Shown here one piece after another: positions 8,171 through 61,167 of a DNA stretch of 64,000 nucleotides. A model generated the notes under the pieces. It was not told the DNA's origin, ran no database searches, and saw only the letters and a list, made by a program, of their open reading frames with translations. Position 1 is the stretch's first letter. Each line of letters opens with the position of its first letter. Made by a program: the position numbers and the translations under genes. Source of the stretch: Naegleria gruberi (taxonomy: Eukaryota). The DNA lies in assembly GCA_000004985.1 (NCBI GenBank), contig GG738852.1; one strand, 5' to 3'.

Positions 8171-9979
8171 ATGAAACGAATCAATAACAAGGTTATCTTT
8201 CTAATAGCTACTGTAATTGTAGCTTTGCTTGCATTAGGAGTTTCCGTCTCCTTGCAACAACAAGTATCTGCTCAAGCAGGTGCCCAAGCTAGTAGTAGTG
8301 GTGCTTCTGTTAATGCTGGAGGCCAAGCCAGTGCTGGAAATCAGAATAACACTCAAGGTGGTGGACAAGGGCAAGGACAAGGACAGCAACAAGGTGGCAC
8401 ACAAGGACAGAACAATACATCTACTCAAGAGTTGAACAAGTTTTTGAATCGTATTGATACTGATTTGAGAATGATTGGAAGCTTTATTGATAGATGTGCA
8501 GGTTTGCAGCAACAAGGCCCAGGTGGTCAACAAGGTGGTCAACCAGGTGGTCCTGGACAAGGACAATTTGGTCAACCAGGCGGACAAGGTGGAATGCCAC
8601 AACAACCTCAACCAATTCAAGACCAAGGACCTCCAACTCAACAACAACAACCTGAATCTATGTGGTATTCAATGTTGGGAATGATTGGCTTACAACAATC
8701 TCCTCAACCACAACTTTCTGCCCAACAACAATTCCCACAACCTTCTCCTCAACCACAGCAATCACCAGCTCAAGCTCAGCAATCACCACAACCTCAACAA
8801 TCACCGGTTCAAGCCCAACCATCTCCACAACCACAGCAATCACCAGCCCAACCTCAACAATCACCACAACCTCAACAATCACCAGTTCAAGCCCAACCTT
8901 CTCCACAACCTTCTACAGTTGGAGCTGGTGCTGGTAGTCAAGAAACTAGACAACAAATTGCTTGTGGAATTGTTACCAAGGCTGCCACTAACTTGTTGAA
9001 TAATACCATGAGTTTAGTTTCCACTGTTAGTAACAATACCCAAATCAGCTCATCACTCAAGCAAGCTGTTGCTCAATTGCTTATTAAGGCAAATTTATTG
9101 TCTTCCAATGCCAAGAATTCAAGTTGGACCAATTTCCTTACCTCATTTGATCAATATGCTGTTAGTTTCTCAGCCTTGCAACAATCTCTCTCCAGACGTC
9201 AACAACAAGGCGGCCAACAAGGAGGACAAGGACAACAAGGCGGCCAACAAGGTGGCCAACAACAAGGTGGTCAAGGACAGCAAGGTGGTCAATTCGGTCC
9301 TCCACAACAAGGTGGTCAACAAGGACAATTTGTGCCACCTCAACAACAAGGTGGTCAACAAGGTCAATTCGGTCAGGGACAACAACAAGGCGGTCAACAA
9401 GGCCAATTCCCTCCACAACAAGGTCAAGATCAACAACAATATTCCTATCCACAACAAGGTGGTCAACAAGGTCAACAATATCCACAACAGCCTTATCAAG
9501 GACAATATGGTCAAGGACAACAAGGAGGTCAACAACAATATCCACAACAGCCTTATCAAGGGCAACAACAATATGGTCAAGCAGGCCAATATGGTCAACA
9601 AGATCAATATGGTCAAGGTCAACAAGGTGGACAACAATATGGTCAACAGTATCCTTACCAAGGACAACAAGGAGGTCAACAACAATATGGCCAAGGTGGA
9701 CAACAATATGGTCAACAAGATCAATACGGTCAAGGACAAAGTCAATACGGTCAACAATATCCACAACAGCCTTATCAAGGTCAACAAGGACAAAGTCAAT
9801 ACGGTCAAGGACAACAAGGAGGTCAACAACAATATCAACCACAGTATCCAACACCTTTCTACCAAAATCCATACCAATACAGAAATCCATACTTTTACCA
9901 AAGCCCAAGTTATCAATACTATCAACCACCACAACAACAACAACAATATGAAGGCTATTATCCAGAATATTATTACTAA
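8171..9979 (+). CDS. Secreted Q/G/P/Y-rich low-complexity (prion-like) protein
   Basis: N-terminal signal/TM (VIFLIATVIVALLALGVSVS). Followed by degenerate repeats QQGGQQGQF, SPQPQQSPAQ and QYGQGQQGGQQQYPQQPYQGQ. Ends in a Y/P-rich tail. Confidence 0.55.
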   Translation: MKRINNKVIFLIATVIVALLALGVSVSLQQQVSAQAGAQASSSGASVNAGGQASAGNQNNTQGGGQGQGQGQQQGGTQGQNNTSTQELNKFLNRIDTDLRMIGSFIDRCAGLQQQGPGGQQGGQPGGPGQGQFGQPGGQGGMPQQPQPIQDQGPPTQQQQPESMWYSMLGMIGLQQSPQPQLSAQQQFPQPSPQPQQSPAQAQQSPQPQQSPVQAQPSPQPQQSPAQPQQSPQPQQSPVQAQPSPQPSTVGAGAGSQETRQQIACGIVTKAATNLLNNTMSLVSTVSNNTQISSSLKQAVAQLLIKANLLSSNAKNSSWTNFLTSFDQYAVSFSALQQSLSRRQQQGGQQGGQGQQGGQQGGQQQGGQGQQGGQFGPPQQGGQQGQFVPPQQQGGQQGQFGQGQQQGGQQGQFPPQQGQDQQQYSYPQQGGQQGQQYPQQPYQGQYGQGQQGGQQQYPQQPYQGQQQYGQAGQYGQQDQYGQGQQGGQQYGQQYPYQGQQGGQQQYGQGGQQYGQQDQYGQGQSQYGQQYPQQPYQGQQGQSQYGQGQQGGQQQYQPQYPTPFYQNPYQYRNPYFYQSPSYQYYQPPQQQQQYEGYYPEYYY

Positions 9980-10047
9980 ACTAATTGTGAGAAACTAACT
10001 GTACATATTATATACATCTCGTGAGATTAATAAAACTATTTATATAT

Positions 10048-17863: not shown

Positions 17864-17950
17864 TCCGATGAGACGGAATCGAACCGCCGACCACAGGATG
17901 ACAGTTTTTCTTGCTACAGTCCCATGCTCTACCAGCTGAGCTATCATCGG
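17864..17950 (-). tRNA. tRNA-Tyr(GUA): tRNA-Tyr (anticodon GTA) with 14-nt intron
   Basis: Hand-folded cloverleaf: acceptor CCGATGA/TCATCGG, D-arm GCTC-AGCTGGTA-GAGC, anticodon stem TGGGA/TCCTG with loop CTGTAG-[CAAGAAAAACTGTC]-A, T-arm GGCGG-TTCGATT-CCGTC, discriminator A. The intron 3' of position 37 is typical of eukaryotic tRNA-Tyr. Confidence 0.75.
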
Positions 17951-41355: not shown

Positions 41356-44300
41356 TTACTTCTTAATGGTCACTTCACTGGCTGCACATGGAGAGAATTT
41401 AATGTAAACTTCACCCATGGCTGGAGTGGCAAGAGCAGAATCTTTCTTACTGCCAATTAATTTACCTTCCTTGGCTTTCCAATATTCAGCTTCTCTGAGG
41501 ATAAATCTTCTCTCACGTCCAATATTGTGTAAACGAAGGAGGTCTCCAACTTTGACTCTGAATTCACCCATATATTGATCTCTTGTCTTTTGATAGTCCA
41601 TACATTTGACAATTAAATAATCTTCATAATCAAAGATGTGAATAGTATGTGGTTCATGCCAATCAGGATTGACAGTTCTATTGACAATCTTGGTTCTAAC
41701 CTTTTGTTTCTTAGAACCCTTTCTGGTATTCTTTTCATTCAATTTAACTCTGAGGTAAGGATCTGCTGAGCCATGGTCAACCGGTAATAAATTTCTACCT
41801 CTGGAAACTTCCATTTTGAGACCTTCAGGTTTTGGTGCAATATATTTTGGAATGAGATTTACAATATTCTTTTCACCACATCCAACAATCTTCCATCCAC
41901 CCTTGTATAATTCAATGACACACATTGTTACAATAATGTCATTATCACTTTCATCAGCACTATCGTAACCATCCTCATTGACTTCATACTTTTCTTCCTT
42001 CTTAGTATACTTGTCAAGGAAAACACTTCCTGCAGTTTGAACACGAATAATTTCTTGACCTGTTCTCATGCCAACAACACGGCAGTAAACTTGTGAATTT
42101 TCATTGAGGACACTTCTTGATTTGACTTCAATATTTGCAACAATGTATTTGACATTGGAGCTTTCAACAAGATCACGAACACGAACGTCGAATTGTTCTT
42201 CATCATCTTGAGTATAGATGGTTAAAAAGTTAATTGGACGATGCTTGAGTTTGGCATCCATATCACTATATCCATCAAAGACTTTACCAATATATCTTCC
42301 AAAGTGATCATAGAGTTCAACTTCTGCATTGAGAATATGCTTCTGACCACCATTACCAACTACACCGAAACCAAGAACCAAATCTCTCTTATCCTTGACA
42401 AAGTCCTTTGAAACTGAAGTTGTTTCCTTTGCTGGAACTCTGAAAATATCATTAGATGGTTCACTGATATCAAATTGGCACTTTTGCAAGATGGATCTCA
42501 AATATTTACGAGCTGGTGATTGGAATTCTATGATTTCATCCAAAACTTCAATGAACCATTCGTCTCTTTGACCTCCACGATAAGCAATGACAGCCAAATT
42601 GGCATGTTGATGACAATTGAATACTTCCAAAGCATCTGTTGAACCATCAACATTGTAAACATTTCTCATTTTGGCAATACACATGTCAACCTTTTCGTCA
42701 ACATTCCACAATCTGAATGCATTGATTTGCTTTTCAGGAATGAGTGAATAATCCAAACCTTCCTCTTCTTCATTTCCAGAAATATCCTTGAATTTCAACA
42801 AGAAGCACATAAAGTATGGAGCATGAGGTTCCTTGCTATAGTTCAAATCAACACGGTGGAATGAGGACAAACTTTGCAACATTTGATCTTGTCTTGGAAG
42901 TTCATGTTCTTCATCCTCATCTTCTTCTTTGAGAACAAATGAACCAGTCATTTGAATATCACTGTTAGAGTCATTCTTTTTTGAAAGGGCAAGTTTTCTC
43001 TTTCTCAAATCATTTTCTTCATTGACCATGATTGGCTTAGCTCCTGTTAAGAGTTTACCATATTGTGAGAATTCTAACACTTGGAGAGCATCTAAGTTCT
43101 TTACAGTTGAAAAATCGAATCCAACAGTTCTGACTTCTTGCTTTGAGATACGGAAACAACGTGGTTTTTCTTTCTTTTCTTCTGACTTTTCTTCCACAAC
43201 AATCAAATCCAAGTCATCACCAACAGAAACAACTTCTTCAACATTTTCCTTCTTTTCTTGAGGCTTTTCAGCATCACTGGCCTTGTCTTGTTCTGCTAAC
43301 AACTTTTCTGCCTCTCTTTCACGTTCTTCTTCCTCAATTTCTGCCTGTGTTGTCAATTCAATACAAGGAGGTAAATCAATTGTGGTAACATAGGATTGAA
43401 TTTGAGCTTTCAACTTTGGATCGATAAGTGGATGGACACCATATGAATATTCGCCAATATTGCTAATCTTCCATTTGGTAAGTCCAATAAATGATCCAGA
43501 AGATACCATCGAGTTGATTTGATTCTTCTTTGAGGTAAAGTTAATTCCTGAAGATTCATTTGGATTTCTCAAACAAGTCAACTTGCAAGCAATGAAACTT
43601 TGGTGAGCCTTATCAGCAGTGTTCAATTGATATCTGTACAAGTCACCAACTGATGGAGTGGAAATCTTAACAAATGGATCTTTGAGTTCTTGGAAGCCAG
43701 AATCTTGAGCATTGGAAGAAGCAGTCACAACAACCATGATGGAGTGGACAGATTTTGGAAGACGACTCAAATCAATTTCTGCACACAAATCATTTTCCTT
43801 TCCAGACTCGAAGAGATTGTCCTTGTAGAATACAGCTGCAGGAGTTGGTTTGATGGCATGTGAAGAGGTTGACAAGTTATTACTTGAAGCTGTGTTAGAT
43901 GTGGCATTTCTAGGAGAATTGTTTCCAACACTTGGCTTATCGTTAGCAATTGATGAGCTTGAATTTCCAGCAGTAGAAGCTGTATTGGTATGATTTTCAA
44001 TTCTAGCAAGTGAGAGCTTTGGTGTGTATTGATCAATGTGACCAAGACGAGTTCCATATTTACCAAAGAATAGTACTGTAGTTGTTAAATAATATCTAGA
44101 GTATGATCTTCCTGAAAGGGCTTGCCATCCAATGAAAATCTTGACACGATCCTCATTGAAAGTGTAGCTCTTTTGCATGGAAATTTGTGATGCAATGGAT
44201 GGCTTTTCACTTTCCTTCTTTTCATTTTCATCGTAAGGATTTACATCCTTCTTGGCATTGATTTCTTGAAGGAGAGCTTCATCTTTCAAGGTTGGAATGA

Positions 44301-45654
44301 ATGGTGGTTTTTCAGCACTCACTTGAACAGATGACAAATATTTGTGAACCTCTTCAACAATCAATTGATCGATCAAAATCGATCCAGTCAATTCAGAATA
44401 GACACGAACAATATATTCTTCATCATCATCATGATCATCATCTTTGAGTAAATTAGCAATGGCCATATTTTCCTTATTCAAATTCTTCTTTTCCTCCTGA
44501 CGAAGGTGAATAATATAAGTTAAACGATTCTTCATGGAAATGAAAATATTCTCTGGCAATACATCCTTACACATGGCATACATGAAAGCATCAATAAATC
44601 TCTCATTGTGTCCAATATCTACTTGTTTTGAGACAATTTGCCAATAATAACTTGAATTTACACTTGCAGATGTTTCATCTTCTTGGGTAGTTTCATCATT
44701 TTCTTGTTCTGCTGGTTTCAAGTGACTGGAATTTCCAGGACTTTGTGAAATTGATGAATTATCCATAGCTGATCCTTCATCATCGTCATCATCCTTATTG
44801 GTATTCTCTTTTTCCTTTCCAGGTACCACAGATGTTGAAATAACTTCAGCATCTCCTCCTCTCAATTGAATAATTGCAAAAACTTGACCACTGACATCTC
44901 TTTGATTATCAAGTTTTGAAGAAATGGCAAGTTTCAATTCTTGATCATTAACATATTGATACAAATTACAACTAGCAAATGACAGTTCCGATAAAACTGT
45001 TCCAGCATAACAAGAAGCAAGGAAAACAATACAACGAACTTCTTGATCAACTTGTGAAAGATCCAATTCAATATATTCATTGCTATCAGAAATAGCTTTT
45101 TCAAGAGGAATTGTGTCATCTTTCAATTGTTCCTTCCTATTGTTGTTTTGATTAATATAGTTCAATTAGTTTTGTTATTATTTTAGAATAATAATATTGT
45201 AATTTGTTATATGAACATGTTAATATCTAAATAAACATAAGAAGAATACATACATTCTATTAGAATCTAGATTTTTAAATCCATTTCTATCATCACCACT
45301 ATGTTTTAATCCCTTCACTTGATCCAAGTTATTGAAAAAACAAACATCATGAATACCACCATATTTGTTTAAAAGAATGGCAACTAAATCAACATCGTGT
45401 GTTAGTGTAGATTTTGATTTCCATTGTAAAGTTGCTATAAATCGTGTATTAGAAATATTGGATGTGGCTAATGATGGACTTGTTGATGATTCCGTATTTT
45501 GTTGTGGATTGATTGGTGGTAAATTAAAGACAAAATTATGACTGTTTTTAAAGGGAAAAGTTGAGAATGTTGTAGGATTTGTTGTGCTGTGGGTGATGGA
45601 AAGAGGTGAATTTGGAGGTGAGAGAGCAGCAGCAAGTTTGGTTTTATTTAACAT
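41356..45654 (-). CDS. Large multi-TerD-like-domain protein with C-terminal C2 domain; 2 exons
   Basis: join(45654..45254,45136..41356). Exon 1 has the TerD signature THDVDLVAILLNKYGGIHDVCFFNNLDQVKGLKHSGDDRNGFKNLD, then AT|GTATGT. A 117-nt intron ends in ..caacaatag, and G completes an ATG codon in frame. Further TerD-like modules (..VFAIIQLRGGDAEV.., ..HANLAVIAYRGGQRDEWFIEV.., ..YCRVVGMRTGQEIIRV..). C-terminal C2 domain (LLPVDHGSADPYLRVKL...NPDWHEPHTIHIF). Confidence 0.6.
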
Positions 45655-46067: not shown

Positions 46068-49000
46068 ATGCCTCCTAATCAAAGTAGTAGCAGCTCTAGT
46101 AACAGTCCCTATATGATACCTCCTCATTTAGCTACGCCCTCTCATCATCATGAAAGACATTCATCAGAGTATTCGGAAGAGTCAACCATTTTGACTACAC
46201 GAGGAGATAATCATTTTAGAAATAATTCTCAACCTGCATCATTTACTACAAATAATTTGGCATCTAGATCAAAATCTAATCCACCTGTAGGAACCAAAAT
46301 ATATGGACAAGGAATGCCAATACCTTTTGGAGTCCTTGATAGTTATACACCACCTCCTTTGAAATCTAGTAATAGTACTTCAAATGTAAATACAAAATCA
46401 CCATCCATCCCTCCTTCATCTCCATCAACAATAGGAAAAAACAAAAAAGAAGAAATACAAATTAATAATACATCGGAATGGTTTACATTGACAACACAGA
46501 ATCATGATTCTTTATTTCCTCTGGAAGGTCATCAAATTTTCTACTGGGAACAATGTTTGGAGGATGAAGATGATTTGACGAGTAGTGTTGAATCGACATC
46601 AATTTTCAATAGGTCACTCAACATGATTGTATTATTTGGAGGAACAGGTCCTATTCGTGGTAATACTAATCAAATATATTGTATGGTACAAAAACATTCG
46701 AGTATCAATTCAAAGCCAACTACTAATATTTCAAATTCTCAAAGTTGTTCACACCAATGGATTCCAGTCCCAAGTCATTATATTCCAAATTATTTTCCAC
46801 CTTCTCTCACTAGTGCCAGTAGTAATGATATTGAGAAATTAGAAAGAAAATCCTCCAAATCTAATATTTTGAGTAATTCTAACCAAGGTGCATCATCTCC
46901 AAGACGTTCATCATTCGAATTATCTTCAATTGCAGAGGATGGATCAACTGAAATACCACTCTACAAATCAAGATATGACCACTCATTAGTATTATGTGGA
47001 AATAATAAGGCTTACCTGTTTGGTGGAAGAAATGGCATGTTCACCAAGACTCCACTTCAAGACTTTATTCTCTACTCTCTTGATATGGATATTTCCAATC
47101 AATTCACATGGGAGATGGCCCACATCCCACCAAAGAATGATAGAGACCCATCAATATTGAAACAATCTCAAAGAGGGTTGGACGATTTATACAACAGAGA
47201 GTCACCAATTCCAAGATATGGACATTCATGTTGTGCTGTAAATCAAAAACAATCGGTACTCCAACGATCTAATAGTACTAACACAGGAAGCTCTCAAGCT
47301 ATCATAGAATTGAATTCTGAATCTGATACACTCTCTGATTTATCTATTGGAGGTTTAAATAACAATTTTGAAAGCAATTCTTCAAGTGCCAGTACTGGGT
47401 CAACCAGATTTAACACTGATGGAGGTGTTGTTTTAGATTGTGCAATGCTTCTCTTTGGAGGAGTAGCATTCACAGATTATTCTGGCTCTAAAAAATGTAA
47501 AGAAACTAACGATTTTTGGATGTTTAATTGTAAGGAACGAAAATGGCTTTCTTATCCAAGCATTATTCAGAGATACTTTAAAAATTCTTCTAGCATTTTA
47601 CAATTCAAAACTGATGACAAGTATATGCAAGAAATTTCTCTCTCCTCTTCAGCAAGTGGAACAAGCTCTTCCAATAGCGAGAGTAGAAAACAAACCAAAA
47701 AACCAGCAAACAATAATATTATTTCAATCCACAGCTCATTCGTACCAGAGGCCAGGTATGGCCATCAGATGTGTGTTGTATCCAACTCGTTGATTTTCGT
47801 AATTGGTGGAGCGACACTAAATAAGGACGCCATGTACAAAGATGTTTGGGTTCTTTCGCTTAGTACTTTCGAATGGAGAAAGGTAAATTTGCTTCACAAT
47901 AAGAATAATGAACAGTTTATCAATAAGATACCTATTCGTTACGCTTCTCACGTAGTTGTTGGTAGAAGAATATTACTCTATGGAGGACAGTTATCATACA
48001 AAACTGGTGATTATCTGACAGAGCTTCTTTGTTTTGATACTGAAACCTATAGATTTTCAATAATTGAAAACAGTATTTCTCCAAAATTTGATACTGGCCT
48101 TGTAAAGGCAACTATGATTCTTTACGGAATTGATCTTTTAATTATTGGAGGTAAAAGAGGTGTTAGCTCATATAGATATAACGATAGTGTTCAGGCATTC
48201 TCTTTCAAATTGCATTCCATATCCAAAACTAATCAAAAATTTATTAGAGAAAACACTAAAATGAAAAAATCTAATCAAATTCTGACTCCTAACGAAATTA
48301 CATTTGAGATACCTACATTTGGAGATGAAGATGATGAGTTTGATATTGCTAATTCTGTTAAAATTGATTTAATATCTCAAATTCTATTAAGTGAAATGTC
48401 AAGCAGTGATTTCTCAAGAAAAGAGGCTCTTAAATACCTTTCAGAAGTGAAGCAAATAGATATTGTAAAACAATTATTTAGAAACAATTCCATTCACAAA
48501 GCTCTATCGATAATTATGCAATCGGGATCCAAGTCTGATATCAGACAGACTGCCAAAGTTTTAATCAGATACTTTAAAGATACTGACCAAGGTACACTAC
48601 CATTTATCATTGCTCGACAAGTACTAAAATTCATTGAAAGCTATTTGACCTTGATTAACACCCTTATCAAACTTCGAGAACCAATCAGCCAAACATTACA
48701 TTTAGATTATCTTAATTTATTCCACTTAATGTGTCAAAATTTTGAATATTATGAATCTCTATCAAAGGAGCTCATTTCAGTGTTTCAACAATGTTTCAAG
48801 TTGAGTGATCCATTATCAAAGGCATCCCTAGATATTTTACAACTAGCCGTTTCATCTGTTGAGTTCTTATCACTTAATGCAATGCATTTCGCATCAAAGT
48901 GTGATAAGGAAACAAGTATAATATTTAGAGATTTTATAACTCTTTGCAACGAGGCTAAATCCAAGACAGCTAAAAACTTGGAAGATAATCCAATAGAAAT

Positions 49001-49142
49001 GCAAGGATCTATCCTTAAGCTTGATGAATTGGTAAACAAACTTCGCCAATCCCTCTTCAGACTTTCATCAAGAAGCAAACCAATCAAAAAATACCTTGGA
49101 AAATTACTGAAACGAAGTGAAGAAGATGATGATGATATGTAA
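46068..49142 (+). CDS. Kelch-repeat (beta-propeller) protein with helical C-terminal domain
   Basis: Track ORF starts at TTG 46026; ATG 46068 (MPPNQSSS). Six kelch-like blades (..RYDHSLVL..LFGGRNG; ..RYGHSCCAV; ..LLFGGVAF..DFWMF..KWL; ..RYGHQMCVV..IFVIGG..VWVLSL..EWRKV; ..ASHVVVGRRILLYGG; ..ATMILYGIDLLIIGG). S/N-rich N-terminus. Confidence 0.6.
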   Translation: MPPNQSSSSSSNSPYMIPPHLATPSHHHERHSSEYSEESTILTTRGDNHFRNNSQPASFTTNNLASRSKSNPPVGTKIYGQGMPIPFGVLDSYTPPPLKSSNSTSNVNTKSPSIPPSSPSTIGKNKKEEIQINNTSEWFTLTTQNHDSLFPLEGHQIFYWEQCLEDEDDLTSSVESTSIFNRSLNMIVLFGGTGPIRGNTNQIYCMVQKHSSINSKPTTNISNSQSCSHQWIPVPSHYIPNYFPPSLTSASSNDIEKLERKSSKSNILSNSNQGASSPRRSSFELSSIAEDGSTEIPLYKSRYDHSLVLCGNNKAYLFGGRNGMFTKTPLQDFILYSLDMDISNQFTWEMAHIPPKNDRDPSILKQSQRGLDDLYNRESPIPRYGHSCCAVNQKQSVLQRSNSTNTGSSQAIIELNSESDTLSDLSIGGLNNNFESNSSSASTGSTRFNTDGGVVLDCAMLLFGGVAFTDYSGSKKCKETNDFWMFNCKERKWLSYPSIIQRYFKNSSSILQFKTDDKYMQEISLSSSASGTSSSNSESRKQTKKPANNNIISIHSSFVPEARYGHQMCVVSNSLIFVIGGATLNKDAMYKDVWVLSLSTFEWRKVNLLHNKNNEQFINKIPIRYASHVVVGRRILLYGGQLSYKTGDYLTELLCFDTETYRFSIIENSISPKFDTGLVKATMILYGIDLLIIGGKRGVSSYRYNDSVQAFSFKLHSISKTNQKFIRENTKMKKSNQILTPNEITFEIPTFGDEDDEFDIANSVKIDLISQILLSEMSSSDFSRKEALKYLSEVKQIDIVKQLFRNNSIHKALSIIMQSGSKSDIRQTAKVLIRYFKDTDQGTLPFIIARQVLKFIESYLTLINTLIKLREPISQTLHLDYLNLFHLMCQNFEYYESLSKELISVFQQCFKLSDPLSKASLDILQLAVSSVEFLSLNAMHFASKCDKETSIIFRDFITLCNEAKSKTAKNLEDNPIEMQGSILKLDELVNKLRQSLFRLSSRSKPIKKYLGKLLKRSEEDDDDM

Positions 49143-49639
49143 CAATAATTCATAAATGAAAGTAATAATCTGAGTAGATTGGGTATTATGTTTTTTTCTG
49201 GGACAATCATCAATTATCATTGGCCAATTAGAAGACATGTCAATTTACACATTGACATTTAAAAATTAATTATAGCAAGTCTTTTGCCATCGTATCGCTT
49301 ACCAAATATATATCTGTATGTACATTGCTGGTTGAGTTGACTTACTGAGCAACACCATAACATATCAGCTGGAATAGTTCATTTAACTACAGTACAAACG
49401 TTTCTAATAATGCTTTACATACCAACACTAGTCATTTCCCTCCATATTTAAAAACCCTTTCGTTATCTAAATGATCGGCAGCACTAAGGTGTCAGTGGCT
49501 TGTATTAGAACAAATAAGCTGTAGCCTTCCAAATATTAACAAGAAAACCCGACATATTATTTGAACGTTAAAGTGCACTCACCATCTATCGATTATGCCA
49601 CAAGCTGCATTGCAACATTATTAAAAAAACAATTTAAAG

Positions 49640-50938
49640 ATGTTCGACACCTCGGTACTAGAAGAACCAATAGATCTCTACTCAATATTGATGCTCCAGC
49701 AAAGCAATACCACCACTACCAACTCAACCACAACAAATTCTACCGTTACGCATGCTAGCATCGCAGCAACTTTCCCACAAATGATGGAGAATGCTCTCTC
49801 AATCTCCAATTCAATCTTGTACATTATCATCTACTCTATTCTCATGGCTATCATGACTGGTTTCCTCATCAAATACAAGCAAGACATGAAGAGAAACCAG
49901 AAAATTCTCTATGGTCTTGTCTTTTTATGTATTCTCACACAATATTTTGGTTTAATTTTCAGATTAGTTTACAATGGTGAAGCCCTATGGATGAACATGA
50001 CATTTCCTGATTATTCGAAATCATTGACCCAAATCAACTACTACAAGACTGTTCTCTATGTATTTTCATTCCTTGAAAATTTGTTTGTTGTCTTTCAGAC
50101 TGTTAATATTATCATTGTGATTTGTTTTATGCAGAACTTGTTGTAAGTATTTTCTGATATGATTATTTAAACATTACATCATGTTAGTTTGAATACTGTC
50201 AAATTGTCAGGTGCTATGACCAATGGAGTTTATAAAGGGTTGAAGTGGACTATTAACATTGTGAGCTTACTTTGTGCTGTCATCATGAGTATTATGGTCA
50301 TTTTGAATAGTGCCATTGGATTAATATCTAAAATGCAGGTTGCCAACTTGAATACCCTTCCAATTATTGTTACCATCTTTTTAATTTTCCTAGCAACTGT
50401 CATTGTTGAAACTGTATTGTTCCTTGCCTTGGGTATTCGTTTATTGTTAGTTGTGAGAAAGAACAGTCTCAATATTTCACAAGCTAAGGACAAGATTTCA
50501 TTCCTTCAAAGACCTGAAGTCAGAATTAGTGGATTAATTATTGGAATGTTAGTCAGTGCCTATATCCAAGTATTGGCAGCTGTTGTATCTGTTTTCACTA
50601 CTTCCTATGCCTCCTATTTGCACATTTTTGATTACTTTTTACAAGCTTTTGGTATTCTAGTTTTTGCAGTATTCGTCTTGCTTCTCTACAATCCATTGGT
50701 TTCGTATAGTGTTTCCTCTAAATCTTCAACATCAAGCCAAGCTCTCGATGATGTCAAGACCCACAGTGAAAGAACTGACTCTGCACACAACAGAAGACTC
50801 TCCTCTGCTCGAAGTGCCATCAACAAACAAACCAGTAATTTGAGTGATGCCTATGAGAAGGTACTTTCTCCTTCCACAACTACATCTACTTCGGTCTCTT
50901 CTCCCATCGGAAACAATGATTCTTTCACTAAGGTGTAA
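49640..50938 (+). CDS. Seven-transmembrane receptor-like protein (GPCR-like), paralog 1; 2 exons
   Basis: join(49640..50142,50188..50938). Exon 1 ends ..QNL TT|GTAAGT. A 45-nt intron ends in gttag, phase 2 in frame. Seven hydrophobic helices (3 in exon 1, 4 in exon 2) and an S/T-rich cytoplasmic tail. Confidence 0.6.
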
Positions 50939-51159
50939 ATAAACCCACAACAACAGATTCAATTTTTACACCTTTTAAAAGACCGTTCGTTATGTGGTTT
51001 TATGGCGTACAATTTACAAATGAAATCCAAGTCAAATTGCCAAACAGAGAAATTTACAAAACCAAACAGAGATATGAGTGAGGGTTTCTAAATCCCTACC
51101 CATCAATAACAATGTTGAAAGATGGCAACAACAAGATTCAAAAAAAAAGTTAAGAACAA

Positions 51160-52491
51160 ATGTTTTGGGACAATCGACATCATTTTCACACTTTCAATAG
51201 TGGTTCTCTGCAAACATCATCAACAACAACACTTCTCTCCACAACAGCAACATCAACAACAAATACTTCATCAACAAACACAACAACAGATTACTCCAAA
51301 ATAATTCCTCAGCTGACAGAGAATGCATCGTCAATAGCAAATTCCATATTCTTTATTATTATTTATTCGATTCTGTTGGCATGTATTTTGGCTTTTTATA
51401 TTAAATCGAGAAAGCAAATGAAGAGGAATCAGAAAATTCTCTTTCTATTGGTTGGAATTTGTATTATTGTGCAATATTTGGGTTTAGTTTGGAGATTAGT
51501 TTATAATGGAACAGGTCTACACATTAACATTAATTATTCTGACTATTCTGAAATTACCAATTTCGAAGAGTATTTAATTGTACTCTATGTTTCATCAACT
51601 TTTGAGAATGCACTCGTATTGAGTCAGGTGATTAATATTATTATTGTCACTTGCTTTATTCAGAACATGTTGTAAGTAATTTTGTGACACAAATTCCACA
51701 ATATTGACATTCACAGTTTGAGAACTGTTGAGAATGCTGGAGCTATGAGTAAGAAAGTCTACAAGATTTTGAAATATCTCATCAATATCGCTAGTATATT
51801 ATTTGCAGTACTTGTCACACCACTTATCATTCTCAATTCTTCCATTAATTTGGCAACCAAAATGCAAGTTGTGAAATTTGACGTTACACCAATCATTGTG
51901 GTTATTGTAGTCACATTTGTCTTGGTAATATTTGGAGAATTAACAATATTTATTACATTAGGAGCCAGATTATTGTACGTTGTAAAACAGAACTCTCTCA
52001 AAATATCACAAATGAAACATAGTGAACAAGCAACTTTGAAAGAGATTCTTCAAAGACCTTATTCGAAAATTGTTGGACTTATCCTTGGAATTTTATTGAG
52101 CTCACTGCTCCAATTTATTGCTGGAATTATTTCGTTTTTGACCTCAAACTATGCTTCATATTTACATATATTGGATTATTTCTTACAAGCTTTTGGAATT
52201 TTACTGTTTGCAGTTCTGGTCTTGCTTGTTTACAATCCATTGGTACTTTCACATAATAGTATTGGAAGCTCAACTGTGAATCCAAATGATGAGCCACCTT
52301 CTCAGATTTCCAGTGCCAGACTACCATCCTCAAAAAGAAAAACCATGAGTACAAAGAGTATGGAATTGAGACACTCACCAAAGAATCAAACTACAAGTCA
52401 ACATGAAAAGGAGGAACACATTGATGAAAGTGTCTCTACTCGCAATGATGGTGAGCAACCAATCTCCACTCCAGGTGAATCTCAAGTTTAA
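51160..52491 (+). CDS. Seven-transmembrane receptor-like protein, paralog 2 (tandem duplicate of 49640 gene); 2 exons
   Basis: join(51160..51671,51717..52491). Same architecture. A 45-nt intron (GTAAGT..cacag) sits at the identical position after ..CFIQNM TT. Collinear similarity to paralog 1 (IIIYSIL..KRNQKIL..YNG, SYASYLHI.DYFLQAFGIL.FAV.VLL.YNPLV). Confidence 0.6.
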
Positions 52492-52621
52492 TACCAATTG
52501 GAATAAACCAGAGTGCACCAATTCCATCACAACAAAACCAACTTTCTAATAATGTGATTCTAAACAAACTAATCTCATAATCTCATTCAGTTGATCATTT
52601 AATTTGAATACACTAAAAAAA

Positions 52622-53863
52622 ATGCCTTGTTCCACTAATAACGATCCCAATGCGTTATTTTACGACTTGACTGATTCCTTCAGTGCAGAGAGACAATTAT
52701 TTACTCACTGCATTCAAAATGATGAAATTTTAAATAATCTCATAATGTTTTCCTCCATTGGACAAATTGTTCCGAATCTTTATATTGGATATGAACAGTC
52801 AGATCATACTAGATATCCAAAAGATGAAGATGATATTTATAATGATATTTTGGATATGGATGGTCTCAAGAGTATTCGAGTGAAATTGAAAAATGTCAAG
52901 TTGGTGCCTGATGATGGTTTAGTGGTGCGTTCTTGCAATGGCTATAGTACCATTCAATTTAATCCATTAGAAATACACGAAAAAGAATTGACAGAATTTG
53001 AATTTGAAAAGAAGGGAAAAGTCCCGATCATGATTGAATTCAAGAAGGAAAATACCCAAATTCATGCACTTAATCAAGATTTACTATGCTACTTGTTCCA
53101 GTTTGTTGACACTAAGAGTTTACTTGCAAATTACTCTCAAGTCTGTTCGAATTGGTTCAGAATGATCTATTTTGATAAATCAAATGCAATGAATTATCTA
53201 TTCGAGAATAGGACAGTTTCTTTCTTTGAGAAGAGAGGTGCAAGCTCTGAAACAATTCACACCTTGAAAAGATTGAACGAAAGATATCAACTAGATTGGT
53301 TGGAAACATACATGATGAGTGGAATGTTTCATTTTGAAATGGATGGAGAGGAAATTATGGACGAATTACAGACTCTGCTAGTATATTCTAGTGAGGAAAA
53401 ATCATTTTTCTACACTTCAATTATCTTGGATCCACTTCAATATTTAAGAGATGTTATAACAGAGGATCACATCTTGTTCGAGAAACTTTCCAAACATACT
53501 CGTAAAGTAGTTTCAGTTTCAAAGAATTGTATCAGTTCAGCCATTGATCAACATATTCTAAATGGATTTGTCTCCAATTTGGTTGGTTTGGACTCCACTG
53601 ATGATAATGTGTTATCAATTGTGGAGAGAATCTTACTCTCCCCATGCACAACCCCTCTCGCAAAAGATCAATTATCAATTGATATTAAAAAGTCAATCCC
53701 TTTCTACATTGACTTTTTAAGAGAATTGAGTGTTAAATTGCAACCTTTACTTGCCCAAACTCAATATATGCACACTAAATCACCCGAAAGAGCAGAGGCA
53801 ATATATTGGATTAATGCTTGTTTAATTCGAATGAGGGAAAAAGCTCATCATTTCCTTTGCTAA
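52622..53863 (+). CDS. F-box protein
   Basis: Track ORF starts at TTG 52604; ATG 52622 (MPCSTNND). F-box LNQDLLCYLFQFVDTKSLLANYSQVCSNWFRMIY. The rest is unrecognised. Confidence 0.5.
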   Translation: MPCSTNNDPNALFYDLTDSFSAERQLFTHCIQNDEILNNLIMFSSIGQIVPNLYIGYEQSDHTRYPKDEDDIYNDILDMDGLKSIRVKLKNVKLVPDDGLVVRSCNGYSTIQFNPLEIHEKELTEFEFEKKGKVPIMIEFKKENTQIHALNQDLLCYLFQFVDTKSLLANYSQVCSNWFRMIYFDKSNAMNYLFENRTVSFFEKRGASSETIHTLKRLNERYQLDWLETYMMSGMFHFEMDGEEIMDELQTLLVYSSEEKSFFYTSIILDPLQYLRDVITEDHILFEKLSKHTRKVVSVSKNCISSAIDQHILNGFVSNLVGLDSTDDNVLSIVERILLSPCTTPLAKDQLSIDIKKSIPFYIDFLRELSVKLQPLLAQTQYMHTKSPERAEAIYWINACLIRMREKAHHFLC

Positions 53864-53885
53864 TGAGTACAAACATACAAGTGGA

Positions 53886-54401
53886 TTGTGTAATTTAGAA
53901 CCTCTTAATTTTGGAAAATTATTGGAAAACAGGAAACTTTACAACTCATCAAATGAATCATCATTGGAAAATGTTGATTCTTACTTGCCAGCAACATATA
54001 GGGTTGATTTGATGCACTTGTTGTTGAATGGAAAGAAGGGCAATACTGAAAGTGAACCACTTAGTTTGGTAGATCCCCACCTATTTCTACAACCAATTCA
54101 TGCCATTCAATTTTTAAAAGAACATATCATTGATTTGAGTAAGGTTATGGACACAGCCACAACAGAAATTGAACGTTCTGAATGGATTGATAAATACAGT
54201 GAGGAATATAGAATATTCATATCAACAATTCATGAAAAATCAATCACTCCACCAAAGCAAGTAGACCTCTTCTTCCATTTACACATGTTGCACCCAAACA
54301 ATTTCATTCAAGATTGTCAAAGATTGGCCAAATCCATTAAGGAACACCAATTTAATTTTGAATGGCAGAAAAACGAAGCTTCTCGGGAGTATGATGAATA
54401 A
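53886..54401 (+). CDS. Hypothetical ORF downstream of F-box gene (possibly a 3' exon of it)
   Basis: 171-codon ORF beginning at TTG, 22 nt after the upstream stop. First Met ~residue 43. No clean GT..AG joining to the F-box ORF was found. Confidence 0.25.
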   Translation: MCNLEPLNFGKLLENRKLYNSSNESSLENVDSYLPATYRVDLMHLLLNGKKGNTESEPLSLVDPHLFLQPIHAIQFLKEHIIDLSKVMDTATTEIERSEWIDKYSEEYRIFISTIHEKSITPPKQVDLFFHLHMLHPNNFIQDCQRLAKSIKEHQFNFEWQKNEASREYDE

Positions 54402-54499
54402 GCCATCATCTCATTAAATTCTTCTCCATTATCATCAACTCTTGAATATTTAATTAAAATTAATATTTTAAAATTTTGTATTAAAAAAATTAAAAAAAA

Positions 54500-55918
54500 A
54501 TGGCGCGTATTGAAAATGTGCAATCAGCATTCACCTCTAGTTTTCAACAAATTCTCGAGATGGGCAATATAAAAGATCCCAATCTGGAGAGGGCTCTTGA
54601 GTTGTTGCGAGAAAAAATTATTCTTCAAGGATTACCTTCGGAATCATTGGTAGGTTGTTTTCCGATGATGATTTGTTATTTAATAATCGGAAAGAAACAC
54701 AAAGATGCCATCTTGTTGGGAAAGTATGATGAAAAGTGTGAGGATTGTACTCTGAGATTCATGTTGGAAAAGTGTGATTATAAACGTGTTTTGGAATGTG
54801 AGGAAAAAGGTGATACAACAGAATTGTTGGAGAGTATTAAAAATTTTGAAAGGAAGAGATTTCAATATGAAGATGAATGGGATAAGGAAATGGAAAATAA
54901 TACATGTTTTAAATGTCAAAAATTAATTGCTGATAATAGTATTAGAAGAAGAGTGTGGCTTGCTTTATTACGGATAAAACAAGTTGATTTGGATCATTAT
55001 GTGACACTTGTAAAACAAGGATCACAAGCTGAGGACTATGAATCTTTCTTGAGAGATGTTGATAGAACTATTGGATATTTTCCTGTATGTACAATATATT
55101 TGGAGAATGTTCTGACATAATATTCATTTGTGAAACTTAGCATTTAAAAAGAAGTGGAATTTCAAAAAATAGACAAGAAACACTCAAATATGTATTATAT
55201 AAGAAAATGAAAAGAGTTATCAATAGTTTCCTCCTAACATACGGACACAAGTTTAGTTTTATTCAAGGAATGACTGTTATTTGTACATTTTTGCTCATGC
55301 ACATGTCAGAAGTGGAAGCCTTCTATTTCTTTGAGAGATTGATCACTAAAGTTTTTCCAACGTATGTGAATCCAGCTCAAAGAGTGGGCAATTCTTCAGG
55401 TAATAGTGCTGAGAAGGGTATTGAAGGAGTTTATGCTGCCTGTTACTTACTTGATCAATTGATGAAAGATCATGATCCAGAGCTTTTCAAAATTTTATCT
55501 CCATCCAAATTATGGGCTTTTGCATGTAAGTTGAAATGCTTATTAATTGGAATTCAAGTCTAAATGTTTTTTATTAGATATTAAGGCAATAATGTGTGCT
55601 ATGAGTGACGTACAAAAAACAGCAGTGTATTGGGATTTCTTCATGGCAACAGGTTTTCATATGATTGTATTGTGTGTTTTTGGCATGGTGAAAGTTGAAC
55701 GAGAAAAAATCATTGCTCATTTCAAAAAAGAGAAGGACTCTATGAAAACTATTACATTTATCAAAGATGAAATCATTCCAAACTCTGACCCACAAAAGGT
55801 GATAACAGAGGCTTGCAATACCATGGAGTGTGTGAGTGAAAATTTTTACGATCTTCTTGTGCGTCATACTACAGACCTAGCTCTTTGTATTGACCTGAAA
55901 AACAAAACTGTTAAATAA
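54500..55918 (+). CDS. TBC-domain Rab GTPase-activating protein; 3 exons
   Basis: join(54500..55084,55141..55525,55578..55918). Exon 1 has the arginine-finger motif RRRVWLALLRI...RDVDRTIGYFP. Donor CCT|GTATGT, then a 56-nt intron. Exon 2 has the glutamine-finger motif FSFIQGMTVICTFLL. Donor T|GTAAGT, then a 52-nt intron, phase 1. Exon 3 ..IKAIMCAMSD..WDFFMATGF. Both junctions restore the track ORF frames exactly. Confidence 0.75.
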
Positions 55919-57150: not shown

Positions 57151-60100
57151 TTAGTACAACTTAGAGAATAAACCCTTTTTAACAGGTATTCTATTATTAT
57201 TACTTGCTGATCCAGGTGTTTGAGAACTCATTGGTCTTGCCTTTTGGATAGGACTGGGGGTGTCTCTACTGAAAGAGATGTTATCAAGTGGTGAGGCTGT
57301 CAATGAGGATGTGTTTAATCCAGGTGATCTTGGTGACATTACTGGTATTCCGTCAACCAAAGACTTGCTCATATCCATGCTTGAACTAGATACATTCATT
57401 GGTCCAGCAGAGAATACACCGGTAATCTTTTGTTTGAGTTTTTGAAGTTGGTATTCATACTCTTCTTGTTCCTTCTTATTAACAAGATAATCTTGTTGCA
57501 ATTGAGCTTTTTGTTCCAGTTTGGTATTTTGGAATTTCTTGTTCAAATCCTCCGATTCGATTTGAAGTTGTCTTTCCATTTCCCACATTTGTCTTTCGTA
57601 TTCTAAACGCTTAGATCTTTCCTTCTTTTCATTATCAACTTCTCTCCATATTTCTCTCGATTTTTCATTTCTAATCTTTTGAAGCAATGTCTTTCTAATT
57701 TCTTCTCTTCTCTTTTCCTTATCAACCTCCCATTGCAAGTGAGCTTGCTTTTCGATGACTTGAACCTCTTCTTCTTGCTTCTTTTGGAGGAGTTTTCTCT
57801 TTTGTTGCTCCAAATACTCTTTTTTACATTGGATCATATCATCTTTTTCTGCTCTTATCAATGCCTTTCTAGCAATTGCTTTCTTTTCTCTATCATACAT
57901 TAAGACAGCCTTCTTGAGATGTTGTTGTTGCTTGACTTTTTCAGATTCTTCAACCTTTCTGAGCTTTTGCTTCTCCAGCTCCTTCTTAAAGAGTTTTTGT
58001 TGCTCTTCCCTTAAAATTTCTTGCATAATACTTTCCCATTGTTTCTTTTCCCAATCAAGTCTCTCTTGCTCTAACTTGATACGAGCAGTTTCTGCTACTC
58101 GGAGAAGATCTTGATCCTTTTGTTGCTTGGATTTTTTCTCAAGATCGAGTTTTTCAACAGCAGATTGTTTTCTCTTTTCTGCTTCAAGTTCAACTCTTTC
58201 CTTTTCTCTTCTTCTTGCCTCCATTTGTTCCCTTCTTTCTTGGATACGTTGTTGTTTCTCAACTGCCAATCTTTGATTTTCTCGTTCAATAAGACTGGCC
58301 TTTCTTCTCTCGAGCTCTTCTTTGAGGAGAGCCTTTCGTTCTTCCTCCATCTTGATACGTTCCTTTTCTTGTTGCTCCTTCTCTGCTCTTTCCTTTTCTA
58401 ATTTTTCTCTTTCAATTCTTTGGAGTTCAAGCATTCTTTCCTTTTGCTTGGCTTTAAGGATTTCGAGCTTTCTCTTTTCCAACTCCTTAGCTTCTCTCTT
58501 TTCTCTTTCAATCTTTTCTTGCTCCACACGAAGTTTTTCAATTCGTTCTCTTTCTTCTCTTTCTTTTTCTTCTCTTTCTCTTCGCTCTTTTTCCTCCTTT
58601 TCTCTCTTTTCTTGTTCTATCTTTTCTCTTTCCTTCTTGTCTTGCAAGATTCTCTCAAAGATTTCCTTATTCTTCTCGTATTCTTCCTTCTCTTTCTTAA
58701 TTCTAATCTGTTCTCTAATCTTTCTAGCGACACATCTTCCAAGGAAACCTCTGCCAACTCTTTGCATTTTTATAATGTACTTTTCAAGCTTTTTGTTTCT
58801 TGCTGATTCTAACATTTTGTAAGTATCCGACTTTAAAAATACCTTAGTCTTACCGACTTGGACCTTGTCCTTTCCAAGACTTAAAGAAGAAATAATCTTT
58901 TCTGATGAACTCTTAAAATCAGTACTGGATCCCTCTCCAATAATAACATTATACTTATTAAAGAAGAGTTCATGAGGAATTCTCACACTGTAACCTTCCT
59001 TTCTAATTCTAATAGTTTCCAAAACACCAGACGAGTTCAATTGTTTGACAACTTCTGCATTGCTGAACAATCCAGGTTTCTTAGCAGGGTGAGGTTTGAT
59101 GGTTCTGATCCAATGTGGAGAGGTACTATTAATCAAGTCTAGCAATTCGATCAATTGCTTCTTGAAAGATCCAGTTACGGTAGATGGTTTCTTGTCCTTC
59201 TTATTGGAAGTGAAATCCTTCTTTTCTGGACAAATAGTCTTTGCAACAAACTCAATCTTACTTTGACTAATGATATCAATAATGTCATCTCTCAAAATAT
59301 CCTTATTTTTTTCAATCCAATCCTTAATATTATATTTAACTTCTCCAGCATAGTGCTTGACTGCGAATTCTTCTTTCCACAATGGTGCATGAATAAAGTA
59401 CTCGTGTGATTTGTAAGTTTGAGTAATCATTTCAAAAAATTTCTGATCTGTTGCTGACTGAAGTGCACTTTGGTCGTCAAGTACCTTCAAAATACCAGAC
59501 TTTGAACCTTGAATCATATCGAGACAAGGTTGATTATCCTTAAAGGTGACTTCTGTGACATCGATTCCTTCATTTTCACATTCCTTCTTATCTCTTTTAA
59601 ATGTGTAAGAGTTGTAGTGAGCTTGAAGTGCTTCATTGGCAAAATTGATACAAAATTGTTCGAATGTGTTGAATTCAAACTTTTCAAACCCAAAGATATC
59701 CAACAAGCCAATAAAGCTGGTGTAATCATTAGAGTTGGTATTGTCGTTAATTTTTGCAACCAACCAATCAAACATATTAGAATATAAATTTTTGGATAAG
59801 GCATCTCTCGAATCAGAGGCAGCTTCTGGGGTGAGTGGAGACTCGAAAATTTTAGCCATGACAGCATAAGTCTTGACTGTTAAGGCCTTCTTCAAAGCAG
59901 CAGGTTCAATTTGTAACAATGTACAAGCTTTCTTGAGAGGCTCATCATTTTCCAAGGTTGATCCAGTGTCTTCATTTGGAATTTTGACAAATTTGATATT
60001 TTGAAGATGTAAAATTGCAGCACACACTTTAAAAACAGTATCTCTAATCTCATCCTCAAACCCAATGACCTTAAAGGCGTTTACCATGGCATGAAAATCA

Positions 60101-61167
60101 GAAACATCGTCAATAGTGTCCACTTTGAAACAATTTCCTTTCATGATACTGTCATAATCTTGAGCTTTAGTTAAGAAGAGTTCCTTCTTTTTTGCTTCAT
60201 CCATACCAGCAAGCATTTGATAGAAAATGTGATATGATCTTTCATTAGGTCCCTGCTTCATTAAACGGGATTTTTCCAACAAGTCTATTTCCATGTTAAT
60301 TAATTGAATCCAAACCAAACTTACAGTTTTCTGTGACGGCACCCTTAATGATACCATGTGAGTCAAATTGAAGTTTAATAAATTTACCAAATCTAGAAGA
60401 GTTATCATTGTTCTTTGTTTTAGCGTTACCAAAAGCTTCTAGAATTGGAGAAGCTTGTTGAATTTTAGAACTCATCCCATCCGCCACACTCTTAACATTA
60501 GGATCGTTTGTCATTGTTGATGAAAGTTTACATAAATATTTGATAACAGATTTACAGGCCTCAGTTTTACCTATTAAATTTGATATTAAAAGTGATCAAA
60601 ATACTTAATGAAAAATTAAAACTTACCAGCACCACTTTCACCTGAAATTAGCAAGGTTTGATTTCCTTCCCCTCCTTTCATTGCTCTGTAGGCTCGGTCG
60701 GCAATTTGCCAACAATGTGGATTTAAGCCCTTCTTTCTCTCGACGTAATTAATCATGAATTCATCCTTACAGTATGGGATGGTCCACTTGAACGGATTGA
60801 GGGAGATGATAAGACCTCCAATAAATGTATAAATTTTGTCTTCCTTGAAACGGTTTTGAACACAATACAGCAATGATGATTCGTTAAGTTCAATCAAATC
60901 CAGCAAGTCATCATTCACTGCAGTTAATATATCTTCTTTGTACATGTTGAGATCACTTTCGGTAACCCAGGCATCTTCAACACCTTGCGATGAGCAAAGG
61001 TAAGGCGTTGGAATTTTGTTTGTTTGCTTCTTTTCATCAATATCCTTAATATTACCTATAACCCATGAGTGAACAGGATGATTAAATAAAACCTTAGCAC
61101 CCTTTTCCCAACTTGTGGATTTTGCAGCAGCAGGTTTTGCTACTAATGTTGAAGCCCTAGGTGGCAT
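57151..61167 (-). CDS. Unconventional myosin heavy chain with long E/R/K-rich single-alpha-helix/coiled-coil region; 3 exons
   Basis: join(61167..60627,60570..60325,60284..57151). Exon 1 ends at the P-loop GESGAG|GTAAGT. A 56-nt intron follows. Exon 2 (G)[12 protein letters not shown]...[15 protein letters not shown] (switch I). Donor T|GTAAGT, then a 40-nt intron. Exon 3 [23 protein letters not shown]...switch II DIFGFE...IQ motif...~450 aa of E/K/R repeats...S/P-rich tail. Confidence 0.85.

Follow-up and report, generated by a model that had tools for sequence, protein, structure and literature searches.

Two adjacent genes on the plus strand of a 64,000-nucleotide stretch of Naegleria gruberi DNA (contig GG738852.1, assembly GCA_000004985.1; hereafter the window) encode proteins of 417 and 428 amino acids, which we call A (49640-50938) and B (51160-52491). 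It is well supported that both genes are intact and belong to an orphan, unannotated multigene family with a G protein-coupled receptor (GPCR) fold, which is restricted to Heterolobosea (Naegleria and Willaertia) and grows by local duplication. The full reading of the locus, that A and B are intact tandem paralogues of a Heterolobosea-restricted family with a fold of the GPCR/rhodopsin type and act as surface receptors, is one to which we give about equal weight for and against.

The initial annotation had described two adjacent spliced genes on the same strand, and both indeed become single open frames once an intron of 45 nt is removed from each. Exon 1 of gene A (49640-50142, starting with the ATG at 49640) encodes a Ser/Thr-rich N-terminus with N-glycosylation sites and helices 1 to 3, comprising residues 1 to 167 and the first two bases of the codon for Phe168. 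An open reading frame (ORF) identical to this exon (P0005) is present on an environmental contig, L003. The intron of gene A (50143-50187, GTAAGT...TAG) is in phase 2 within a Phe codon that is invariant in the family, and its removal is the sole splice that restores one open frame. Exon 2 (50188-50938, stop codon at 50936-50938) encodes helices 4 to 7 and a Ser/Thr-rich cytosolic tail ending in T-K-V; it is identical to the protein P0003, apart from the start residue, which was set by the gene caller. Gene B is built in the same way, with a Ser/Thr-rich N-terminus and helices 1 to 3 in exon 1 (51160-51671, ATG at 51160), a 45-nt phase 2 intron in the equivalent Phe codon (51672-51716, GTAAGT...CAG), and helices 4 to 7 with a cytosolic tail ending in S-Q-V in exon 2 (51717-52491, stop codon at 52489-52491). 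Use of the alternative acceptors at 51722 and 51749 would keep the frame of gene B but delete residues conserved in A, P0001 and P0009. In both genes the unspliced frame stops immediately, since TT|GTAA reads TTG TAA. The homologous Phe codon, which lies at the cytoplasmic end of helix 3, is interrupted between its second and third bases (QNL-F-LNT in A, QNM-F-LRT in B), confirming that each gene carries one intron at the same codon. Over 373 amino acids A and B share 47% identity (E 1e-81), and over the helical core 55%. No further copy of the family was found in the window.

Both genes of a tandem pair in Naegleria lovaniensis have an intron (75 and 63 nt) at the same phase 2 site in the same Phe codon, as does a third N. 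lovaniensis paralogue that is not linked to them (125 nt). Among 26 homologous N-terminal ORF fragments, which were called by prokaryote-style gene finders and mostly lack a named source, 25 end in F-x-x-x-x-L, as reading through TT|GTAA at this codon yields. Furthermore, the intron-bearing Phe is the sole invariant column of a 34-sequence alignment. The intron position is therefore an old, family-wide feature and nothing peculiar to the pair. The equal length of the two introns is coincidental, since a 98.4% identical strain differs by 5 nt in the intron of gene A and the homologous N. lovaniensis introns are 63, 75 and 125 nt long. At least one environmental family member, the 389-amino acid protein P0012 (L004 3199-4368; ENA ERZ27315067, contig k141_1068317), is encoded by a single uninterrupted, intronless ORF, and a cytochrome b561 gene adjoins it on that contig.

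To determine the extent of the family, a 10-row profile was compared with 1.84 billion representative proteins in a full HMMER scan. This set holds one protein per 50%-identity cluster, so that all counts are lower bounds. A trimmed core alignment served for the word-indexed search, since the low-complexity Thr/Ser words of full-length B swamp its word filter. The scan detected 124 relatives at E<1e-3 and 37 at E<1e-30, with best E-values down to 1e-175. All 30 relatives with a source name come from N. gruberi, N. lovaniensis, Naegleria fowleri or Willaertia magna, all of them Heterolobosea. In N. lovaniensis at least 23 locus tags belong to the family; in N. gruberi there are, in addition to A and B, a minimum of five from elsewhere in the genome. 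The proteins closest to A and B, with about 50% identity, come from N. lovaniensis and N. fowleri, and a word-indexed search with a 34-sequence profile returned family members only. Both proteins match the family profile and carry K-R-N in loop 1, an Arg in helix 2, F-x-x-T and Y-x-P. The proposal that the pair belongs to a lineage-specific seven-transmembrane (7TM) family expanded by tandem duplication is thus supported, the named homologues being heterolobosean throughout and a second tandem pair being present in N. lovaniensis.

Pfam scans of A, B and 34 relatives (36 members in all) at E-values up to 10 detected no domain, including Dicty_CAR, Frizzled, 7tm_1-3, Git3 and THH1/TOM1/TOM3. 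This agrees with the earlier impression that the sequences are unlike cAMP receptors and Frizzled proteins, and no match to a non-receptor transporter family appeared either. Sub-threshold matches, for example to TMEM_230_134 (E 0.0056) and Cellulose_synt (2.4e-4), were inconsistent among members and below the cut-off and were rejected. The best match of a profile search against PDB sequences, Anabaena sensory rhodopsin (E 0.24 over about 60 residues), was likewise discarded as noise. The family is not described in the N. fowleri genome papers. Naegleria does not appear in a 2025 survey of protist GPCRs, in which Discoba are named solely under the GPCR PIPKs, a different family. The family to which A and B belong is new and unannotated, and its kind is well known.

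Kyte-Doolittle hydropathy plots revealed seven hydrophobic segments in each protein, and seven helices were also obtained in structure models of the N. lovaniensis homologue P0001, so that the seven-helix count of the initial annotation held up. So did the Ser/Thr-rich ends it had noted: Ser and Thr make up 36% (A) and 47% (B) of the N-termini, which contain N-x-S/T sites, and 36% (A) and 28% (B) of the tails. Lys and Arg residues are distributed between inside (loops 1, 3 and 5 and the tail) and outside at a ratio of 16:3 in A and 18:3 in B. The N-x-S/T sites lie in predicted outer segments in four of seven cases (A) and five of six cases (B), mainly in the N-terminus and the first extracellular loop. 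Because of this charge distribution and the placement of the N-x-S/T sites, both proteins are predicted to have an extracellular N-terminus and a cytosolic C-terminus.

Of the 36 full-length members, 22 have Val as their last residue, as do 11 of 27 C-terminal fragments, and Ile occupies this place in nine more, although the tails are otherwise highly divergent. Typical endings are -TKV (A, 50927-50935), -SQV (B, 52480-52488) and -SKV. A terminal valine can serve as an endoplasmic reticulum (ER) export signal, including in trafficking membrane proteins, and S/T-x-V is a class I PDZ ligand; the terminal valine of the family may be either.

An AlphaFold model of P0001 built from 10 sequences reached a predicted local distance difference test score (pLDDT) of 66.4. 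With 34 sequences the pLDDT rose to 78.9 at a predicted template modelling score of 0.73, with core blocks above 90 and seven long helices. The N-terminus of the model consists of about 50 low-complexity, disordered residues (pLDDT <50 at residues 1-3, 5-11 and 13-40). The predicted arrangement of the helix bundle superposes on solved GPCRs, and Foldseek searches against the PDB returned weak generic matches only. The weaker first model gave the same fold matches in another order, and the better model ranks GPCRs above rhodopsins. As modelled, the bundle is of a generic GPCR/rhodopsin type and falls inside no known family.

Conservation within the family is strongest at K-R-N in loop 1, at an Arg in helix 2, at F-x-x-T at the cytoplasmic end of helix 3, at a Gln in helix 6 and at F and Y-x-P in helix 7. 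All 18 positions that are conserved in at least 70% of the family are retained in A as well as in B. Helix 3 ends in Q-N-L-F-L and helix 7 in Y-N-P-L-V. Across the family, intracellular loops (entropy 2.0-2.55) vary less than extracellular ones (2.8-2.96). Helix 7 is IFDYFLQAFGILVFAVFVLLL in A and ILDYFLQAFGILLFAVLVLLV in B; neither contains a Lys, nor is one conserved there in the family, and a retinal protein is therefore excluded.

The environmental contig L003 (ENA ERZ929261, metagenome contig k127_195021), which comes from a Naegleria strain and carries exon-sized ORFs identical to gene A, matches window positions 48929-52238 with 98.4% identity over 3.3 kb. Gene A differs from it by seven coding substitutions, all seven of which are synonymous. 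The covered part of gene B shows 11 substitutions, with one amino acid change in the core (N159S), and an in-frame indel in the low-complexity Thr/Ser tract of the N-terminus. Intron A contains a 5-nt indel and intron B is unchanged. Changes per base in non-coding DNA are mostly higher, namely in the two intergenic regions and in intron A but not in intron B. Because of this substitution pattern and the retention of all 18 family-conserved positions, both genes are intact and under purifying selection. The divergence of A and B to 47% identity suggests that they have different ligands or a different regulation.

We infer receptor function from the fold, the topology, the glycosylated N-terminus, the phosphorylatable tail, the expansion into paralogues and the imbalance between G-alpha subunits and GPCRs in Naegleria. 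Nucleotide exchange is rate-limiting in N. fowleri G-alpha subunits, which should therefore need an exchange factor such as a receptor (PMC9283941). Naegleria has an expanded set of G-alpha subunits, some of them dependent on an exchange factor, and arrestin-like genes, yet only one weak cAMP receptor-like (cAR-like) GPCR candidate has been recognised beside 7TM-RGS proteins (PMC9283941). The same work mentions unpublished 7TM proteins (7TMRmine candidates) that have GPCR features and no similarity to known receptors (PMC9283941).

As chemosensory or environmental receptors, A and B would then be located in the plasma membrane, with a short, mucin-like, N-glycosylated extracellular N-terminus, intracellular loops rich in Lys and Arg, and a Ser/Thr-rich cytosolic tail that usually bears a terminal valine. 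Binding of a ligand to the outer face of the bundle would alter how the conserved cytoplasmic face is folded, a face made up of K-R-N in loop 1, the invariant Phe and the Thr where helix 3 ends, and the Y-x-P that terminates helix 7. This change would activate heterotrimeric G proteins. Phosphorylation of the Ser/Thr tail could lead to arrestin-type desensitisation, and the terminal valine could mediate ER export or binding to a PDZ-type scaffold. Going further, the family might represent an independent, Heterolobosea-specific radiation of true GPCRs that are the missing exchange factors of slowly exchanging G-alpha subunits and targets in N. fowleri, a proposal we put forward tentatively and consider doubtful as it stands.

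Several observations weigh against a receptor. No link to any GPCR family was found at the sequence level in the Pfam scans of the 36 members, and the DRY, CWxP and true NPxxY motifs are absent from A and B. The fold was modelled on P0001, with about 50% identity to A and B, and not on either protein itself. Moreover, the fold match is generic: rhodopsin pumps and the non-receptor trafficking protein TMEM87A score nearly as high as GPCRs. The outer helix halves are not more variable than the inner ones (P 0.73), and thus no clear hypervariable ligand pocket can be seen. This missing bias towards extracellular variability would also fit the principal alternative, which is that A and B are non-signalling endomembrane 7TM proteins with a role as scaffold, in trafficking or in membrane homeostasis, like the tonoplast proteins TOM1/TOM3/THH1 or the GOST proteins TMEM87 and GPR107. 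A C-terminal valine is a known ER export signal of trafficking membrane proteins, and UniRef names P0001 (N. lovaniensis C9374_011239) a 'THH1/TOM1/TOM3 domain-containing protein'. The plant THH1/TOM1/TOM3 proteins resemble the family in being seven-pass proteins without extra domains, but their Pfam profile (PF06454) matches none of the 36 members at E-values up to 10. The UniRef name may stem from an older or borderline match. GOST proteins (TMEM87A, GPR107/108) combine a luminal GOLD domain with the 7TM region, whereas the N-terminus here comprises only about 50 low-complexity residues without a GOLD domain, and the Pfam family Lung_7-TM_R is not matched. In addition, a glycosylated mucin-like N-terminus together with a long Ser/Thr tail is commoner in surface receptors, and the growth of a family within one lineage to over 20 divergent paralogues fits sensory receptors better than housekeeping trafficking factors. 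We regard an endomembrane function as unlikely, while giving it more credence than the two alternatives below.

The rhodopsin-like bundle would also be compatible with 7TM transporters, channels or light-driven pumps, and several polar residues (E, N, Q, H, D) indeed lie within the helices. Such a function is improbable: helix 7 lacks the lysine that would form the retinal Schiff base in A, in B and in the family consensus, neither protein has a transporter, channel or rhodopsin Pfam match, the PDB rhodopsin match was noise, and the better model of P0001 ranks GPCRs above rhodopsins. Gene B, or even both genes, could instead be a decaying duplicate without a function of its own, for which the divergence to 47% identity and the indel polymorphism in the Thr/Ser tract of B might speak. 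Both genes nevertheless retain a complete ORF, splice sites and 18 of 18 family-conserved residues, only one of the 11 substitutions in B changes a core amino acid, and the indel keeps the frame and lies in a low-complexity tract, so that decay is very improbable.

The fungal pheromone receptor Ste2 (class D, PDB 7ad3) shares 8% identity with the family; no STE2 Pfam match was found, Ste2 motifs such as LPLSSMWA in helix 6 are not evident, and the taxonomic range differs. Class A receptors such as P2Y1, OXGR1 and GPR174 share at most 13% identity, and PF00001 is not matched. The 7TM-RGS proteins and the cAR-like candidate (PMC9283941) occur in the same organisms, have seven transmembrane helices and are proposed inputs to the expanded G-alpha repertoire. 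A, B and their 34 relatives differ from them in having neither an RGS domain nor a Dicty_CAR match, and the family is not described in that study. The 'Remi-sans-famille' (RSF) orphan GPCRs of choanoflagellates and other protists (PMC12716839) are likewise 7TM-only orphans with a weak suggested link to THH1/TOM1/TOM3. The RSF signature, a short extra helix between helices 6 and 7 with NxLQxxMNxL, was not seen in A and B by eye, no motif search having been made, and RSF proteins are not reported from Discoba (PMC12716839).

Synteny and copy number were examined in N. lovaniensis, where two family genes on the same strand, C9374_011240 and C9374_011239, lie 670 bp apart (PYSW02000004.1; L001 7917-11233). 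About 7 kb upstream of this pair is a TerD-C2 gene that is the orthologue (71% identity) of the gene at window positions 41356-45165; no other window neighbour that was tested is shared near the pair. A gene for an RGS domain protein of 714 amino acids is located about 10 kb downstream of the pair on the same contig. C9374_012248 and C9374_012250 form a further near-tandem pair elsewhere in N. lovaniensis.

In a neighbour-joining tree, A and B group weakly (59% bootstrap). The N. lovaniensis pair and an N. fowleri protein form a 100% clade in which the N. fowleri protein is sister to C9374_011239, and all five proteins form a 90% clade. The tree shows no one-to-one match between the pairs of the two species, so that either each lineage duplicated its gene independently or an old pair was later homogenised by gene conversion. 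According to the tree, the duplication in N. lovaniensis and N. fowleri is older than the split of those two species.

One part of the initial annotation was not supported, namely a related motif about 180 bp upstream of each ATG. It reduces to a single shared 8-mer, TTCGTTAT, which is located on the plus strand at 49459-49466, 181 nt upstream of the ATG of gene A, and at 50986-50993, 174 nt upstream of the ATG of gene B and 48 nt past the stop codon of gene A. Both occurrences are at chance level. The 8-mer is not enriched in the window (three occurrences versus 1.44 expected, a count reached in 14 of 100 shuffles), and the full upstream regions of the two genes have seven 8-mer matches in common. 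When two 221-nt flanks are simulated with a first-order Markov model, the probability that they share an 8-mer offset by at most 10 nt is about 0.15. It is absent upstream of both genes of the N. lovaniensis tandem pair. Over the whole 5' flanks of about 215 bp, A and B give a faint collinear local alignment with a score of 24 (shuffles 15.5 ± 2.7), which was also reached by one of 30 real unrelated upstream pairs. At most, the flanks may retain a faint remnant of a duplicated promoter, with no demonstrated motif.

The window has a G+C content of about 35% and is gene-dense, with long ORFs over most of it. It encodes a serpin, a TerD-C2 protein, a Kelch protein, a myosin, a NUFIP1-like protein, SDE2, a DEAD-box helicase, an MCM protein, a cyclin and kinases. 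The neighbouring genes (TerD-C2, Kelch, serpin, myosin, NUFIP1, SDE2) gave no functional clue to A and B. Directly downstream of gene B, three consecutive plus-strand ORFs (52604-55120; 419, 171 and 206 amino acids) are separated by gaps of 22 and 98 nt and have no Pfam matches; they may be exons of one gene. The TerD-C2 gene (41356-45165, minus strand) encodes a protein of 1269 amino acids with a C-terminal C2 domain and a TerD domain, the latter familiar chiefly from the tellurite-resistance proteins of bacteria. On the minus strand at 17864-17950 lies a gene for tRNA-Tyr(GTA) whose anticodon loop is interrupted by a 14-nt intron (Rfam 54.8 bits); it was missed by ARAGORN with default settings and recovered in its intron mode. 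The region from 8171 to 9998 has the highest G+C content of the window (0.42), an AT skew of +0.27 and long overlapping ORFs on both strands. Its plus-strand ORF of 602 amino acids has no Pfam match, and the region is probably low-complexity or repetitive coding sequence. Between 56001 and 60000 the AT skew is strongly negative (-0.26 to -0.31), coinciding with the Glu/Lys/Arg-rich coiled-coil tail of the myosin gene (57151-60432, minus strand), the motor domain of which starts in a separate upstream ORF (60616-61167).

Should the proteins turn out to be trafficking factors, they would still constitute an unannotated, lineage-restricted 7TM family that deserves a database profile. As more than 20 orphan proteins with a GPCR fold that are conserved in N. 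fowleri, they are concrete candidates for the missing receptors of Naegleria. A receptor function would bear on the time at which receptor-driven G protein signalling originated in eukaryotes. Furthermore, the family could offer pathogen-specific surface targets which, if its members are true GPCRs, would be absent from humans and accessible to drugs in N. fowleri.

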